DNA of 32,000 nt from Candidatus Odinarchaeia archaeon (GTDB taxonomy: Archaea; Asgardarchaeota; Odinarchaeia; Odinarchaeales; Odinarchaeaceae), in contig JAHQXC010000003.1 of the NCBI GenBank assembly GCA_029856525.1, positions 6,370 through 38,369 on the forward strand, read 5' to 3'. Made by a program: the position numbers and the translations under genes. This document shows positions 3,170 to 16,597 of the stretch, piece after piece (position 1 is the stretch's first letter; each line of letters starts with the position of its first letter). The notes under the pieces are model-generated. The model made no database searches and was not told where the DNA came from. It saw only the letters and a list, made by a program, of their open reading frames with translations.

Positions 3170-3994
3170 TTGATAACGGGAGGGACAAGCGGTTTAGGTA
3201 AGGCTACAGCGCTCAGCTTAGCTAAACTCCCTTCATCTCATATTATAATTTTAGGTCGTGATAGAAACCGTTGTGAAGCAGCTGTATCAGATATTATTCA
3301 AGCTACCGGTAACAAGTTAGTTGAATATAGATTAGCGGATTTATCTTCTCAGGCAAGTATTAGAAGCTTTGCTTCAAAATTTAGAGACGAGTTAACTCCT
3401 ATTAATATACTTATAAACAACGCGGGGGTTATGTGTCAGAAAAGAATTTTAACAGTAGACGGATACGAGTTAACGTTCGCCGTTAATTATCTGGCTCCTT
3501 TTCTTTTAACGAATCTCTTAATAGACTCTTTAAAAAATAACACACCCGCCCGTATAATAAACGTTGCCTCGGATTTTCACAGTGATCGAATAGACTTTGA
3601 TAATCTTAACGGTGAAAAAAGCTTCTCTCCTTTCAAAGCTTATAAGCTCTCTAAGCTTGCTTTAATTATCTTCTCATTTCATCTTTCTAAAAAACTTTTA
3701 AATACCGAGATTACAGTTAACTGTTTCCATCCAGGTTTTCTTAAAACAAATATCAGCCGAGGCTTAAGCGGCGTTTACAAATTCGGATTTAAAACAGCTT
3801 CTTTCTTATTCGGCAAAAACCCTGAAAAAGCTGCATCTGATCTAGTGTATTTAGCAACCTCCCCTGAGTTAAGTAACGTGACTGGTAAATATTTTAAAGG
3901 ACGTGTTGAAGCTAAACCGGCTGCGGTAGCATATGATATTCAAATAGGCGAGAGACTATGGGATTTAAGCTTAAAGCTCACCGGGTTATCTTAA
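3170..3994 (+). CDS. Short-chain dehydrogenase/reductase (retinol DH/WWOX-like subgroup); start uncertain
   Basis: TGGTSGLG Rossmann motif, DLSS, NNAG, AVNYLAPFLLT, catalytic YKLSK (YxxxK), HPG. Confidence 0.9.
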   Translation: MITGGTSGLGKATALSLAKLPSSHIIILGRDRNRCEAAVSDIIQATGNKLVEYRLADLSSQASIRSFASKFRDELTPINILINNAGVMCQKRILTVDGYELTFAVNYLAPFLLTNLLIDSLKNNTPARIINVASDFHSDRIDFDNLNGEKSFSPFKAYKLSKLALIIFSFHLSKKLLNTEITVNCFHPGFLKTNISRGLSGVYKFGFKTASFLFGKNPEKAASDLVYLATSPELSNVTGKYFKGRVEAKPAAVAYDIQIGERLWDLSLKLTGLS

Positions 3995-12753: not shown

Positions 12754-12975
12754 TCAGCGGAGTCTAATCATGCATTTATTTTGGCTGACGTATACGTGGA
12801 CTGGTCGACTGTATTTCTCCTCTAAATATCTCGCTATTTTTTTAAGCTGCTCTGATTGTTTAAATCTTCTAAAATCAGGGATATACGCTTCAATCCAGTC
12901 GTTAGCGTATTCCTTTACGACTATCCGGCTTGAAATAAGCTCTTTTAACTCGTTGAAATCACTGTACAGGCTCAT
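12754..12975 (-). CDS. Small hypothetical protein (73 aa)
   Basis: AGGAGGT SD upstream; convergent with the Lrp-like gene (7-nt gap). Confidence 0.75.
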   Translation of the reverse strand: MSLYSDFNELKELISSRIVVKEYANDWIEAYIPDFRRFKQSEQLKKIARYLEEKYSRPVHVYVSQNKCMIRLR

Positions 12976-12991
12976 CTTTTAACCTCCTTTT

Positions 12992-13018
12992 TTATCTCGG
13001 CCATCCAATAGGCACCAT
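12992..13018 (-). CDS. Putative leader micro-ORF MVPIGWPR (8 aa)
   Basis: GAGGGAGGG SD 9 nt before ATG, in-frame TAA directly before the ATG, stop lies just ahead of the SD of the 73-aa gene. Confidence 0.4.
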   Translation of the reverse strand: MVPIGWPR

Positions 13019-13101
13019 TTAATTTTTCCCTCCCTCTTTTTAAATTGGAATATTTTTGAATTAAAAAGTATAGATTTTTATTTAAAAATTTAACTATATA
13101 A

Positions 13102-13109
13102 TATAATAA
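13102..13109 (-). promoter_or_regulatory. Putative TATA box (TTTATATA on minus) for the micro-ORF/73-aa unit
   Basis: Archaeal TATA consensus in an AT-rich intergenic; orientation ambiguous, no good BRE. Confidence 0.4.
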
Positions 13110-13118
13110 ATAGGAAAA

Positions 13119-13166
13119 TAGTTAACTAATACTTGAAAAGTTAACTTAACAATTAAAAGTTAACTT
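13119..13166. repeat. Three palindromic WWGTTAACWW boxes at 19-bp period (putative operator array)
   Basis: TAGTTAACTA 13119-13128, AAGTTAACTT 13138-13147, AAGTTAACTT 13157-13166; each is a perfect 10-bp palindrome. Confidence 0.8.
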
Positions 13167-13168
13167 AG

Positions 13169-13186
13169 AAAAGAAAAAGAAAAAAA
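13169..13186 (-). terminator. Oligo-U terminator of the AbrB-like gene
   Basis: Minus-strand T-tract broken only by single Cs, immediately after the stop at 13189. Confidence 0.6.
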
Positions 13187-13188
13187 TA

Positions 13189-13695
13189 TTATAAGACGCG
13201 GTCTAAAGACTTCACTGCATAATCTAGTTCATCGCTTAAACGGGTTAAATGGTATAATTTACTTGTTAAATGAGTGCTGTTCAAGAAAAGTTCTAAATGT
13301 TTTTTAATAGTAGCGGCTATATTTCCGAATAATTCACGGGCAGCGTCGGAATCGCTTGTTTCTTCAGGGGAAGCCATAGATCTCTGCTCTAAGGCTTCGA
13401 TAGCTATAAGTATTCTCTTTATATGCGTGTCTTTAACACCGTCTACGCTTATAATCTTCCCGTTACTATCTTTAAGAACCCCTGTAATCTGTTTTTTAAC
13501 AAAGTTTATGAAAGCTGGAAGCTCATGGCCTACGAATATAACTTCTAATTTATTTTTATCTTCTACTAGAACCACCGGCCCCTTTGGAAAATTCAGGGAA
13601 TTAGGTATTAAAAGCCCTTTACTCCCACCCCAGTCTCTGATACGGCTTTTAAAACACTGGTTCAATAACCTGCTCTTATTCGAATTAAAACCCAT
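13189..13695 (-). CDS. AbrB/MazE-type DNA-binding protein with C-terminal helical (PhoU-like?) region
   Basis: N-terminal SRIRDWGGSKGLLIP matches the AbrB/SpoVT swapped-hairpin motif (xxWGxSxGxxIP); GGGAGGGAG SD. Confidence 0.65.
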   Translation of the reverse strand: MGFNSNKSRLLNQCFKSRIRDWGGSKGLLIPNSLNFPKGPVVLVEDKNKLEVIFVGHELPAFINFVKKQITGVLKDSNGKIISVDGVKDTHIKRILIAIEALEQRSMASPEETSDSDAARELFGNIAATIKKHLELFLNSTHLTSKLYHLTRLSDELDYAVKSLDRVL

Positions 13696-13799: not shown

Positions 13800-14645
13800 T
13801 CATTTTTCAGTTTGAATTAAATCCTTTCCAGCAGACTCGAGAAATTCAAGCACTCTATTATAGTCTTTAAAGCGTATCCGCCCGTCTACACTTAAATATA
13901 AATCTTTTGTTTGTATCTCCGTCCAGCTTCCAAGCCGGCTTAAATCAATCTCTTGCCTTCTGTTAAGCTCTATTAAACCTTTCCCGACATCGCTGCCATG
14001 GAAAACAATTTTTTCAATGCCATCAGTGCCGCTTATCTCTCTGGAACAGGATAAGCTGGCTGTTAAAACATCTTTACAGTTTGAAACAAAATCTTTTATA
14101 ACGTAAGCTGGGAAACTGATTTTATATAATTTTAAATTATAATTTTTTATTTCAGCTAAGATTTTATCGCTTTCTTTAAGACTGTTCCTGATAATTGCAA
14201 CCGCTTTCTTCACGTCGAGAAATCCGATCATGTTTTTATAAGCTTCCCGGATAGTGGATTTAACGCTTAATTTTTCAACGTTAAATAAATAATATGACTC
14301 TGATTTCAAAGGTTTTTCAATCCATAGATAAGTTTTATCAGGGTTATTTAACTTTTCTAAATCAAGTTTTAAACTATAGGCTGAAGAGATCTGTTCGATT
14401 TTATATAGTGTCCAATCATTCTCCCAGAAAACGTTTTCAGAATTTAAAGTCTTTTGTAATGCTAAATATAAGCTGATTAACCTTGGCATCTTCTTGTAAT
14501 CTAAACCTGCTGCTAACAATTCTTTAAGTTTAACACCTGTAAACCCCAGATACTTATAGAACTCCTTCAACTCGCTTTGACTGTATTGTTTTAATAATTT
14601 AGAAAGGGGGATTGTATCCACTGTTGGAATGTTTATTCTACTCAT
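13800..14645 (-). CDS. Hypothetical protein (281 aa), candidate CENP-N/Chl4-like
   Basis: ORF is solid; the family call rests on recalled motif similarity (FHGSDVGKGLIEL...IDLSRLGSW) and is unverified. Confidence 0.6.
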   Translation of the reverse strand: MSRINIPTVDTIPLSKLLKQYSQSELKEFYKYLGFTGVKLKELLAAGLDYKKMPRLISLYLALQKTLNSENVFWENDWTLYKIEQISSAYSLKLDLEKLNNPDKTYLWIEKPLKSESYYLFNVEKLSVKSTIREAYKNMIGFLDVKKAVAIIRNSLKESDKILAEIKNYNLKLYKISFPAYVIKDFVSNCKDVLTASLSCSREISGTDGIEKIVFHGSDVGKGLIELNRRQEIDLSRLGSWTEIQTKDLYLSVDGRIRFKDYNRVLEFLESAGKDLIQTEK

Positions 14646-14977
14646 ATATTCTGCTTCCAGTCTATAATAATTAAAAATATTTAATATTATCTCAAAGTAT
14701 ATAAGCTATAACCTGAATTAAAAGTTTAGACTAATACACACCTTTAGTTTTAAGATAGGAGAGGCATCGATTAAAAATTGTTTTATTATAGCGGTGTGTA
14801 AAAACGTTTAAATCATGGATGCCACGGTTAAATAATTATATTGTTAACGAGATAAAAACAGGTTTTTAGAAATATTTTATCAAAGCCATCATAGAAATCC
14901 ATGGGTTTAAAGATATGAATGCTTCCGCTTTAACTTCACAGCAGACTATCTGATGTAGATAGGTGAGAGTTGATATT

Positions 14978-14995
14978 CTTATAAAGCTATATAAA
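14978..14995 (+). promoter_or_regulatory. Putative TATA elements upstream of the E2F-like gene
   Basis: CTTATAAA 14978-14985 and TATATAAA 14988-14995. Confidence 0.45.
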
Positions 14996-15141
14996 TTATA
15001 ATTATAAATAAGGATGAGTGGTGGAAGCGGCCCTGAAACCTGTGAAGAGAAGAACTCTTCTCAATGAACAGGACTCATCTGTGAAAAACAAGTTGTAGAT
15101 CACCCGCTAATATTTGTTTAAAAATAATCGAGGCGTCTGTT

Positions 15142-15588
15142 TTGAAACTTATAGAGCTGACTAAGAAAGTAGTACACTGTCTCAGGAATTCGCCTAAACC
15201 TTTATCTGCAGTTGAAATAAGCAAGCAAATAAATCTCCCTATTGAAAAGAAGCGGAGAATCTATGATGTTTTAGACGTATTAGAGGTTTTAGATGTTATA
15301 AAAATATCTCGGCGTGGTAATGAGAAATTAGCTCAATGGATTTCTTCAACAGAGAAACCTGTTGTAAAAGAGTCTTTAGCTGTTGAGAGAAAAATAGAGG
15401 ATAAGCCTCACTGCGTTGTTAACGTTGACTTAGTTTTCCCTTCATCCGATTATAAGAATTTAAGTAATCCAACCTGGCAGGAAATGATGATTAGAGATGT
15501 TAAAAGAAACATTAAGGGTTTACTGGATATAATCGTTAACGATATTAAATTAACGGAGGCTAAGAGGATTCTAGCAGCCAGTCAGTAA
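15142..15588 (+). CDS. E2F/DP-family winged-helix DNA-binding protein (148 aa)
   Basis: LIELTKKVVHCLRNS...KKRRIYDVLDVLEVLDVI...AQWI aligns with the E2F DBD pattern (L..TKRF..LL...KRRIYDITNVLEGI.LI...IQW); TTG start with GAGG SD. Confidence 0.8.
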   Translation: MKLIELTKKVVHCLRNSPKPLSAVEISKQINLPIEKKRRIYDVLDVLEVLDVIKISRRGNEKLAQWISSTEKPVVKESLAVERKIEDKPHCVVNVDLVFPSSDYKNLSNPTWQEMMIRDVKRNIKGLLDIIVNDIKLTEAKRILAASQ

Positions 15589-15590
15589 CC

Positions 15591-15962
15591 TTAGCTTTTA
15601 TCGCTGCCTAGTATTTCAGATATATCCGCTTCTTCCTTCCCCCTTCTCTTAATTTTAATTTCAGGTCCGCGTCCCTCTATTCTTCTCTCTAAAAGCATTA
15701 TATCAGTCTTAGATATTTTAGATTGAAGGCCATACTGGTTGACTATCATTATGATTATATTCTCTATTTCCGCTGCTACAGAGGGTTTTAACTTATAAAG
15801 TTCGTTAAGATATTTTAACGCGTCTTCTTCGCAGACTAATCCGAAAAATTTAGCTTTCTCCTGTTTCACCTTCTCCTGGTATTCTTTTAATTTAGCCTGC
15901 TCGTTGATTCTCTGAATCATCTCCTTCATTTTCTTAAGTCTTATCCGCTCTAATTCATCCAT
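15591..15962 (-). CDS. PDCD5-family DNA-binding protein (divergent)
   Basis: MDELERIRLKKM N-terminus, ...KPSVAAEIENIII..., KISKTDI..L, EIKIKRRG C-terminal motif. Confidence 0.75.
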   Translation of the reverse strand: MDELERIRLKKMKEMIQRINEQAKLKEYQEKVKQEKAKFFGLVCEEDALKYLNELYKLKPSVAAEIENIIIMIVNQYGLQSKISKTDIMLLERRIEGRGPEIKIKRRGKEEADISEILGSDKS

Positions 15963-16146
15963 TACTGTTCACCTAGTTTAACCATAAGTGACTGCTATGG
16001 ATATAAATATTCGCTTTACCTAAGGTTAATAAAGTTGATTTTGCTGTTTAAAAATTTGTATTTTAATATTCTCTTATAGTTAAATAGTTTACCTGTAATT
16101 CACGCTGCCGGGTTTACCCTGCTTAAAGCGGCGGTCTTCTCGCGGC

Positions 16147-16179
16147 GAAATTTATAATATTACTAATATCTTAAATTTC
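16147..16179. repeat. 33-bp near-perfect inverted repeat
   Basis: GAAATTTA-TA-ATATTA-C-TAATAT-CT-TAAATTTC; 14 of 16 positions pair. Confidence 0.8.
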
Positions 16180-16249
16180 AGCGTGCGGTTTATACTAATG
16201 GTATGCGCAATCCCCTCTTGTTTAATTGCCGGCCGGATGCTTGTGTAAT

Positions 16250-16477
16250 TTATTGTGAGGGTAGACTCTGTATTTTATATACTAGGCCGTTAACTCTTTT
16301 TAATTCTGCTGCGAGTCTAGCTGTGATGAATTTTTCTCTTACAGGCGCGTTATCTGGTATAGCTGTGTATATTACTTTATTTTCTTGATCTACTATTATT
16401 ATACATGAGTTTTTATCCGGTTCAGCTACCGGTTTTAGCTCCCCCTCCTCTGTTACACAGTAGATTTGTCTCCCCAT
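16250..16477 (-). CDS. Single-domain gelsolin-like protein (Asgard 1DGel/ProGel-like), 75 aa
   Basis: IYCVTEEGEL, CIIIVDQENKVIY, PVREKFITARLAAEL...GLVYKI resemble Asgard gelsolin-domain proteins (recall); ATG 16477 preferred. Confidence 0.65.
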   Translation of the reverse strand: MGRQIYCVTEEGELKPVAEPDKNSCIIIVDQENKVIYTAIPDNAPVREKFITARLAAELKRVNGLVYKIQSLPSQ

Positions 16478-16597
16478 ATGAATCCCATTTTGTAGTTTAA
16501 CTACATATAGCATAAATTAATATTTATACTTTTCCATCATTCTAAAAATATAAAAGTATATAAATACACTTTTCAAAAAATAAAGCTGGTAATCGTT

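Follow-up and report, generated by a model that had tools for sequence, protein, structure and literature searches.

The window analysed here, a 32,000-nt stretch of an Odinarchaeum genome, contains two divergent genes whose products resemble eukaryotic proteins, one of E2F type and the other described in the first-pass annotation as CENP-N-like, and it raises the question of whether the long spacer between them serves as a shared control region. The first-pass annotation had read the pair, next to PDCD5-like and gelsolin-like genes, as a possible proto cell-cycle locus. Our analysis favours another answer: the locus is quite probably a block of separately transcribed genes with an order conserved in Odinarchaeales, and not a regulatory module.

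Gene layout of the locus

The reading frames, coordinates and distances previously given for the locus were all reproduced in the ORF listing. A 281-aa ORF occupies positions 13800–14645 on the minus strand and is assigned, based on the ORF and its AF2 model, to a CENP-L/CENP-N/RdgC-type fold with a predicted homodimeric state. From it diverges, on the plus strand, a 148-aa ORF with a TTG start (15142–15588), the product of which is an E2F/DP-type winged-helix protein of subfamily B by its Pfam match and RRIYD motif. Two minus-strand genes follow, one encoding a 123-aa PDCD5-like (dsDNA_bind) protein that was identified by Pfam and represents a second, divergent paralog (15591–15962), and the other encoding an 87-aa gelsolin/cofilin-like protein assigned on weak matches (16250–16513); the 75-aa version of the latter reported earlier starts at the second in-frame ATG, at 16477. 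The stop codons of the E2F-like and PDCD5-like genes are separated by 2 nt (15589–15590), and 287 bp lie between the gelsolin-like stop and the PDCD5-like start. The gap between the divergent genes (14646–15141) measures 496 bp and is the longest when compared with the neighbouring spacers of 104, 2, 287, 84, 7 and 186 bp.

Structure of the 281-aa protein

The AF2 model of the 281-aa protein (pLDDT 83, pTM 0.79) consists of an N-terminal helical domain (residues ~10–66) and an alpha/beta body (67–280). Its structural matches were CENP-L (Z 9.1–9.6), RdgC (8.2–8.6), Iml3 (7.6–7.9) and CENP-N (5.5–6.7); out of 48,161 chains, the seven best were all members of the CENP-L/N family or RdgC, and the next, unrelated chain reached Z 3.0. 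A fungal CENP-L cluster was likewise the top structural match in the Atlas (TM 0.55/0.62). At the sequence level, Pfam returned nothing significant for the protein and all 21 family members, RdgC (PF04381) included, and with the CENP-L and CENP-N profiles (PF13092 and PF05238) one of the 21 members touched CENP-N at E 0.19, while the PDB sequence search with the 281-aa protein gave no match at E up to 10. The earlier label of CENP-N-like is sound at the fold level only, and CENP-L and RdgC match the protein at least as well.

Prediction of a homodimer scored 0.57 against 0.00 for the best control, with the runs agreeing in at least 92% of contacts and a partner pLDDT of at least 79; among proteins of solved structure, 20 of 30 known as pairs and 1 of 23 known as single chains reached the mark for this call. 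The pass may in part reflect model memory of RdgC and CENP-L/N complexes. The predicted interface, residues 205–238, shows the strongest conservation of any block in the family, 18 of the 21 members have a pI of 8.8–9.9, and all 85 Asgard genomes with a match, about a third of those sampled, carry exactly one. From the modelled structure, we infer that the 281-aa protein, with its RdgC/CENP-L/CENP-N fold, forms a homodimeric clamp that binds DNA.

Bacterial RdgC is a DNA-binding homodimeric ring. Its structures (PDB 2OWL and 2OWY) share the fold of the 281-aa protein over 187–188 residues (Z 8.2–8.6), and both families are prokaryotic, homodimeric (by prediction for the 281-aa family) and mostly basic. 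Unlike RdgC, the 281-aa protein has an extra N-terminal helical domain and no Pfam RdgC match, and no histone gene adjoins its gene as in the RdgC–histone operons. In the comparison with kinetochore proteins (CENP-L/Iml3/Fta1 and CENP-N/Chl4; PDB 7PKN_L, 7XHN_L, 4IT3 and 6EQT), the body (67–276) superposed on CENP-L with Z 9.1–9.6 over 188–192 residues at an rmsd of 3.6–3.9, and the N-terminal helices together with the body superposed on the N-terminal region of CENP-N (Z 6.7). The predicted dimer, like that of CENP-L/N, is formed via a C-terminal strand and helix. In contrast to CENP-L/N, the family is single-copy and a predicted homodimer, rather than a heterodimeric paralog pair; it also has no sequence-profile similarity to them, and no other kinetochore component is implied. 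RdgC-like proteins are known in Bacillus and Halobacteria (PMC11390915), and descent of CENP-L/N from a homodimeric singleton of such a type has already been proposed (PMC9235857). The searched literature yielded no description of an Asgard CENP-N, CENP-L or RdgC homolog, and the available part of the supplements of Eme et al. 2023 (PMC10307638) does not mention CENP, kinetochore or RdgC.

The E2F-like protein and its PDCD5-like neighbour

The E2F/DP assignment was borne out by Pfam E2F_TDP (PF02319), which matched residues 4–66 to profile positions 6–63 of 65 with 36.3 bits against a cut-off of 25.7 (37.4 bits in the whole-genome profile scan). E2F8 and E2F4 were the PDB sequence matches, and the RRIYD at residues 38–42 aligned with the motifs of these chains and was invariant in alignment A3. 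The AF2 model shows a winged-helix fold with helices at 3–16, 23–29 and 34–49 and strands at 53–58 and 61–66; because Foldseek matched it to generic winged-helix proteins only, the fold cannot tell E2F apart from other families. Outside the DNA-binding domain, Pfam matched no coiled-coil or marked-box heterodimerisation region.

E2F/DP homologs in Asgard archaea have already been catalogued (Eme et al. 2023, Nature, Supplementary 4.1.5; PMC10307638), and the Ca. Odinarchaeum yellowstonii ortholog already bears the name 'E2F family transcription factor'. With the homologs described in the available part of that catalogue, the protein shares PF02319, the RRxYD motif and a short length that covers the DNA-binding domain alone, the dimerisation and pocket-protein-binding regions of the eukaryotic proteins being absent. 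In our Asgard E2F tree, two clades, A and B, were separated with a branch support of 100/99, a subdivision that is not found in the same part of Eme et al. 2023. Unlike the catalogued proteins as a set, the source-genome copy falls in a separate clade B (families f1, f2 and f12), which is distinguished by a two-residue insertion before the KRR.YD motif and by its own C-terminal block (residues 97–140, modelled as two short helices), conserved only within this clade in alignment A3. The neighbours differ as well, being a convergent PDCD5-like gene in clade B and a cyclophilin-like gene in clade A. The E2F-like protein would be a sequence-specific winged-helix DNA binder of an Asgard subfamily B.

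The PDCD5 call was also confirmed, with dsDNA_bind (PF01984) matching residues 7–106 to profile positions 1–105 of 106 at 34.8 bits (cut-off 26). The PDCD5/TFAR19 family is near-universal in archaea, and the 123-aa protein shares its full-length domain above the Pfam cut-off; relative to the canonical copy on another contig (C77, 90.3 bits), it is a second, divergent copy and, unlike the family in general, it lies specifically tail-to-tail with clade-B E2F-like genes. This arrangement was found in all four f1 genomes, in all six f12 genomes examined, and in f2 with one intervening gene, which points to the convergent PDCD5-like paralog as the evolutionarily stable partner of the clade-B E2F-like gene.

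For the remaining neighbour, the gelsolin-like call is plausible but weak. All six PDB sequence matches, each of them weak, were to cofilin, ADF or actophorin, at E values of 0.28–1.1, and the nearest Atlas clusters (score 0.94) consist of Asgard proteins of ~100 aa, 13–28% of which carry Pfam Gelsolin. The 87-aa protein resembles the Asgard single-domain gelsolin/cofilin-like proteins in its size, weak cofilin/ADF matches and Gelsolin-bearing Atlas neighbours, but differs from them in reaching no Pfam threshold, that of PF00626 included.

A further possibility, which we hold only tentatively and consider on balance unlikely, is that the 281-aa protein is an unduplicated archaeal counterpart of CENP-L/CENP-N and that, separately, the clade-B E2F-like protein cooperates with its dedicated PDCD5-like paralog. 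If so, the 281-aa protein would be the 'DNA-binding homodimeric singleton', the CENP-L/N ancestor inferred from human kinetochore structures.

Origin of the 496-bp spacer

The gap is gene-free in the source genome, as had been claimed, but not in its relatives: the six further genomes of the order that were searched, three of the same genus (G001–G003) and three of the sister family (G004–G006), all have it filled by a Ras/Rab-family GTPase gene of 175–192 aa with Pfam Ras (PF00071) scores of 178–187 bits, broken into two ORFs in G002. An intact GTPase frame with G1–G5 motifs is absent from the spacer, where the longest wholly contained ORF has at most 33 aa, and the whole window contains neither a tRNA (ARAGORN) nor any Rfam family at the gathering score.

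Adjacent to the 281-aa gene, positions 14646–14730 form an AT-rich candidate promoter block, lying between that gene and the former GTPase gene, which is nearly invariant in four Odinarchaeum genomes (alignment A1). Directly after it, at the expected position, 14731–14757 on the plus strand retains nine codons from the start of the lost Rab-like GTPase gene, with seven of nine residues equal to the N-terminus of the G001 protein. The following 338 nt (14758–15095, plus strand) probably represent a decayed and shortened relic of the coding region, which spans ~500–530 nt in the relatives. Collinear semi-global alignment of the spacer to the GTPase genes exceeded that of dinucleotide shuffles with z-scores of 5.0, 3.6 and 3.1, and 0–1 of 300 shuffles equalled it. 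Similarity in the middle of the spacer is significant only by this collinear comparison, since, apart from the nine N-terminal codons, no significant match came from tblastn with the GTPase proteins, from blastn or from nhmmer. No ortholog of the GTPase was found elsewhere in the source genome, since the best match there shares only 47% identity with the G001 copy. Judging from these sequence comparisons, the spacer is most readily taken as what is left of a small GTPase gene after decay, non-coding in the source genome. The failure of standard nhmmer and blastn to detect GTPase similarity in its middle leaves some small chance that unrelated DNA replaced the gene, instead of decay in place.

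The last part of the spacer, 15096–15141 on the plus strand, holds a TATA-like box and a GAGG ribosome-binding site within ~45 bp upstream of the TTG start. Both elements are conserved in the four Odinarchaeum genomes, so that the E2F-like gene has what appears to be its own promoter and control region.

It is very unlikely that the spacer now codes a new functional small structured RNA which has replaced the GTPase gene and is driven by a promoter-like block at ~14975–15005. The candidate, a hairpin-forming and genome-specific stretch at 15012–15080 on the plus strand, was predicted to fold with a minimum free energy of −24.5 kcal/mol, and a promoter-like block at 14962–15022 shares 78% identity (E 4e-7) with a block on another contig of the same genome (C93), where it sits upstream of another GC-rich non-coding stretch. 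Against this, the z-score of −2.5 is modest, with 3 of 200 shuffles folding equally well; five related genomes yielded no match to the sequence; and it has no Rfam family, its C/D-box matches in a permissive scan reaching 11–19 bits against gathering scores of 36–41. The sequence after the block on C93 is unrelated and also belongs to no Rfam family.

With the spacer read as a GTPase relic, the ancestral order would have comprised, on one strand, the 281-aa clamp-like gene, a 168-aa gene and a 73-aa gene (the latter two adjoin the 281-aa gene only inside the order), and onward the divergent Rab-like GTPase and E2F-like genes, followed by the convergent PDCD5-like paralog. Decay of the GTPase gene would then have brought the E2F-like and 281-aa genes head-to-head secondarily, each gene of the locus retaining its own short promoter.

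Linkage of the E2F-like and 281-aa genes

The module proposed earlier, a proto form of cell-cycle or chromosome-cycle control, would have the E2F-like protein bind the common spacer and regulate its own gene together with the divergent CENP-N-like one. We consider this highly improbable. The two genes do lie in the same neighbourhood in all seven genomes of the order and are separated by 4–6 kb in three members of family f16, and this closeness, throughout the order and in a second lineage, could reflect some functional coupling; in addition, both products are plausibly DNA-binding, as judged from sequence and model, and GGCGGG(A/T), which resembles an E2F half-site, occurs in three of the six f12 upstream regions inspected. 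Nevertheless, the GTPase gene separates the pair in all six relatives, and footprinting of the spacer across the four Odinarchaeum genomes revealed separate, AT-rich conserved blocks and no shared GC-rich element. Neither TTTSSCGC nor GGCGGGW occurs in the spacer, and both are at chance level in the window (a single TTTSSCGC site in its whole length). The missing TTTSSCGC is weak evidence, because archaeal E2F-like proteins may recognise a site other than the eukaryotic consensus.

Synteny across Asgard archaea also spoke against the module. Among the 28 genomes with both genes, the pair is unlinked in 18 and within 10 kb in 10, the latter representing three (f1, f2 and f16) of the seven families that have both, with adjacency confined to Odinarchaeales (f1 and f2). 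In f16, exosome, proteasome and ribosomal genes lie between the two, and one complete genome has 1.5 Mb between them. Many Asgard lineages carry only one gene of the pair: f12 has the same E2F subfamily, yet none of its 19 genomes has the 281-aa family, and f4 and f21 have the 281-aa family without E2F. As the gap corresponds to a decayed GTPase gene that the relatives still carry, and the putative promoter blocks are short, each belonging to one gene only, the locus offers no evidence of cell-cycle control by such a module.

The kinetochore network of CENP-L/N also includes CENP-M, a protein folded like a small GTPase (PMC4080450). In six genomes of the order the clamp-like gene has the GTPase gene as its divergent neighbour, and in a distant genome (G028, family f18) a Ras-family gene overlaps the homolog start on the same strand. 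It is nonetheless scarcely credible that the clamp-like protein and the small GTPase were the meaningful ancestral pair, echoing CENP-L/N with the pseudo-GTPase CENP-M and leaving the E2F-like gene a bystander, given that the GTPase gene is decayed in the source genome and split in G002 while the clamp-like gene is intact, that the other 22 loci inspected have no GTPase within 1.5 kb of the homolog, and that CENP-M, once purified, showed no binding to CENP-L/N in vitro (PMC4080450, Table 1). Adjacency in two lineages is about chance level, because Asgard genomes carry many such GTPases; the 1.3-Mb source genome has 14 matches.

Implications

An E2F-driven chromosome-cycle module, if real, would be a striking precursor of eukaryotic cell-cycle control, but the evidence does not support it. 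For Asgard genomes in general, the locus is a caution that what looks like a long 'regulatory' spacer may turn out to be a dead gene and that head-to-head arrangements of eukaryote-like genes can arise secondarily. The two E2F clades with their different conserved neighbours offer a firmer basis for function than the pairing of E2F with a CENP-N-like gene, and the CENP-L/N/RdgC-fold family, on the strength of its predicted structure, would be a specific candidate for the prokaryotic counterpart of the DNA clamp in the inner kinetochore.

Gene organization and homology of the eukaryote-like proteins

The window corresponds to positions 6370-38369 of contig C33 in a 1.32 Mb, 93% complete genome of the genus Odinarchaeum. 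ORF calling bore out the genes and spacings described in the first-pass annotation: a clamp-like gene of 281 aa (13800-14645, minus strand; termed CENP-N-like in that annotation), a 496-bp gap (14646-15141), an E2F-like gene of 148 aa with a TTG start (15142-15588, plus strand), a PDCD5-like gene of 123 aa (15591-15962, minus strand) whose stop codon lies 2 nt from that of the E2F-like gene, and, 287 bp further, a gelsolin-like gene of 87 aa (16250-16513, minus strand). The gap is indeed gene-free in this genome: it contains no complete ORF of >33 aa, and scans for tRNAs and for Rfam families at threshold were empty. The gelsolin-like start is ambiguous (16477-16560): with a TATA-like AAGTATAAATA only ~5-10 nt ahead of the initial ATG (16513), the second in-frame ATG (16477; 75 aa) is favoured, barring use of a TATA-like stretch lying further upstream.

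The homology assignments made earlier largely hold. The 148-aa protein scored 36.3 bits against Pfam E2F_TDP (curated cut-off 25.7), bears RRIYD in its recognition helix and had E2F8 and E2F4 as best matches in a PDB sequence search; its ortholog in Ca. Odinarchaeum yellowstonii is already annotated as E2F, and Asgard E2F/DP homologs are reported in Eme 2023 (Supplementary 4.1.5) and in a review (PMC7617429). The 123-aa protein matched dsDNA_bind/PDCD5 at 34.8 bits (cut-off 26). Two copies are present in this genome, and this one scores well below the canonical copy on contig C77 (90 bits). For the 87-aa protein, the Pfam search gave no match, the six weak PDB sequence matches were all cofilin, ADF or actophorin, and the nearest Atlas clusters were small Asgard proteins, part of them with Pfam Gelsolin, which makes a gelsolin-like identity plausible.

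The spacer as the probable remnant of a GTPase gene

The 496-bp spacer had been proposed as a shared control region through which the E2F-like protein controls itself and the divergent clamp-like gene. In six relatives, three other Odinarchaeum genomes and three of the sister family, this gap is occupied by a Ras/Rab-family GTPase gene of 175-192 aa, which is co-oriented with the E2F-like gene and stops ~50-160 bp before it. By aligning the four Odinarchaeum regions, three recognisable pieces were found retained in the window: an AT-rich promoter block adjoining the 281-aa gene (14646-14730), the nine initial GTPase codons (14731-14757; 7/9 residues identical), and, in the last ~45 bp of the spacer, a TATA-like box and GAGG site preceding the E2F-like gene's TTG start. 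The middle 338 nt gave nothing significant by blastn or nhmmer, and aligned collinearly with three GTPase genes better than dinucleotide shuffles did (z 5.0, 3.6 and 3.1). The best GTPase elsewhere in this genome has only 47% identity to the copy in G001, one of the three Odinarchaeum relatives. Judged from these alignments, the spacer is most probably a dead GTPase gene. Because the gene is present in relatives and its remnants persist in the window, the head-to-head arrangement is secondary, and the spacer is no ancestral control region common to the two genes.

In G002, a complete Odinarchaeum genome, a frameshift or else a sequencing error has broken the Rab-like GTPase gene (L003:856-1394) into ORFs of 83 and 94 aa; a genuine split would be a second independent decay of this gene within the genus. 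Outside the order Odinarchaeales, the sole GTPase/clamp-like overlap was found in the distant Asgard genome G028 (L013:561-2019; L044:903-1475), in which the beginning of the clamp-like homolog is overlapped by a co-oriented gene for a Ras-family GTPase.

Within the spacer, a hairpin fold was obtained for positions 15012-15080 (z -2.5), preceded by a promoter-like block with 78% identity to one elsewhere in the genome. The hairpin segment was not found in five related genomes, so a genome-specific small RNA is a possible but unproven candidate. The matching block, 78% identical to window 14962-15022, lies on contig C93, where it is followed by a ~140-nt GC-rich non-coding stretch (region ~3530-3740; L022:1495-1700) flanked by endonuclease-IV-like and Sm-like genes. 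This stretch has no Rfam family, shares no more than its final 25 nt with other Odinarchaeum genomes, and may represent either a structured RNA so far unannotated or an extended leader of the Sm-like gene.

Linkage of the clamp-like and E2F-like genes and search for shared sites

Among 251 sampled Asgard genomes, E2F_TDP was found in 108 and the clamp-like family in 85, the latter in a lineage-consistent pattern and single-copy wherever matched. Both occur together in 28 genomes of seven families. Adjacency, with the GTPase gene between, is confined to seven genomes of the Odinarchaeales; in three genomes of family f16, probably Sifarchaeia as judged from a near-identical sequence in the Eme 2023 supplement, the pair lies 4-6 kb apart with Rrp4, SBDS, proteasome-alpha and S25e genes between; and in the remaining 18 the two are on separate contigs or, in one complete genome, 1.5 Mb apart. 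The clamp-like gene occurs without E2F in families f4 and f21, and E2F without the clamp-like gene in f6 and f12, the clamp-like family being absent altogether from f12. Linkage of the pair is lineage-restricted.

The spacer contains neither TTTSSCGC nor GGCGGGW, and across the window the frequency of each motif matches chance expectation. Throughout the order, the conserved promoter blocks proved AT-rich and without a common element. With a GTPase relic in the spacer, a mostly unlinked pair and neither motif in the spacer, the regulatory-module reading is not supported.

Upstream of the E2F-like genes of f12, GGCGGG(A/T), resembling the eukaryotic E2F half-site, was observed in 3/6 regions (L067, L069, L081-L084) at 10-60 nt before the start codon, with a GGGCGAGGA variant in two more; for the sixth (G036), the start codon from which the region was taken had been misplaced. 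The element may be an autoregulatory site, a candidate lead for that lineage only.

Two E2F-like clades with distinct neighbours

A tree of 31 Asgard E2F-like proteins resolved two clades (support 100/99). Clade A is represented in most lineages and includes a second copy in the sister family f2. At clade A loci (L059-L077, L056), a convergent 125-135-aa cyclophilin-like gene (PF04126) is almost always the neighbour, often with a CxxCxxCC protein (PF03692) upstream; no mention of this trio was found in the portions of the literature consulted. Clade B, to which the window's gene belongs, comprises the window's family f1, the GTPase-linked copy of f2, and f12, and bears its own conserved C-terminal block. 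A PDCD5-like paralog is convergent with the clade B gene in each of the four f1 genomes (2-5 nt between the stops wherever both were available), in 6/6 f12 genomes examined (gaps of 30-79 nt), and in f2 with one gene inserted between. This pairing is far better conserved than the E2F/clamp-like pairing proposed previously.

Fold and predicted dimerization of the clamp-like protein

Sequence searches with the 281-aa protein matched nothing in Pfam or the PDB; it is 70% identical to a hypothetical protein of Ca. O. yellowstonii. An AlphaFold2 model from 21 homologs was confident (pLDDT 83, pTM 0.79), and Foldseek placed human CENP-L on top (E 7e-6), ahead of Iml3, E. coli RdgC and CENP-N. In an exhaustive structural search of 48,161 chains, the top seven were solely CENP-L (Z 9.1), RdgC (Z 8.2), Iml3 (Z 7.6) and CENP-N (Z 6.7 to 5.5), below which Z falls to 3.0; an ESM Atlas structural search gave a fungal CENP-L cluster on top, with archaeal, Bacillota and RdgC clusters close behind. 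Given these matches, "CENP-N-like" is right at the fold level, while in the predicted structure the protein resembles CENP-N no more closely than it does CENP-L or RdgC, with which it shares the fold. CENP-L/N are already viewed in the literature as distant relatives of RdgC, with a homodimeric DNA-binding ancestor inferred (PMC9235857), and a kinetochore-origins study found no significant sequence similarity of CENP-L and CENP-N to other proteins (PMC6601020). Our literature search found no paper describing an Asgard CENP-L/N/RdgC-like family.

A homodimer of the 281-aa protein was predicted with a score of 0.57 (best control 0.00), contact agreement between runs of at least 92% and partner pLDDT of at least 79, a mark attained by 20/30 proteins solved as pairs and 1/23 solved as single chains; this pass may be partly due to likeness to solved RdgC and CENP-L/N complexes. 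Conservation within the family is highest at the predicted interface (residues 205-238), and family members are mostly basic.

In every genome of the order, the 281-aa gene is succeeded by co-oriented genes of 168 and 73 aa (12754-13695, minus strand, in the window); neither has a Pfam family, and neither was found beside the clamp-like gene outside the order among 30 loci inspected. The three genes may form an order-specific operon.

What remains most valuable at this locus is the clamp-like family, together with the pairing of clade B E2F with a PDCD5 paralog.
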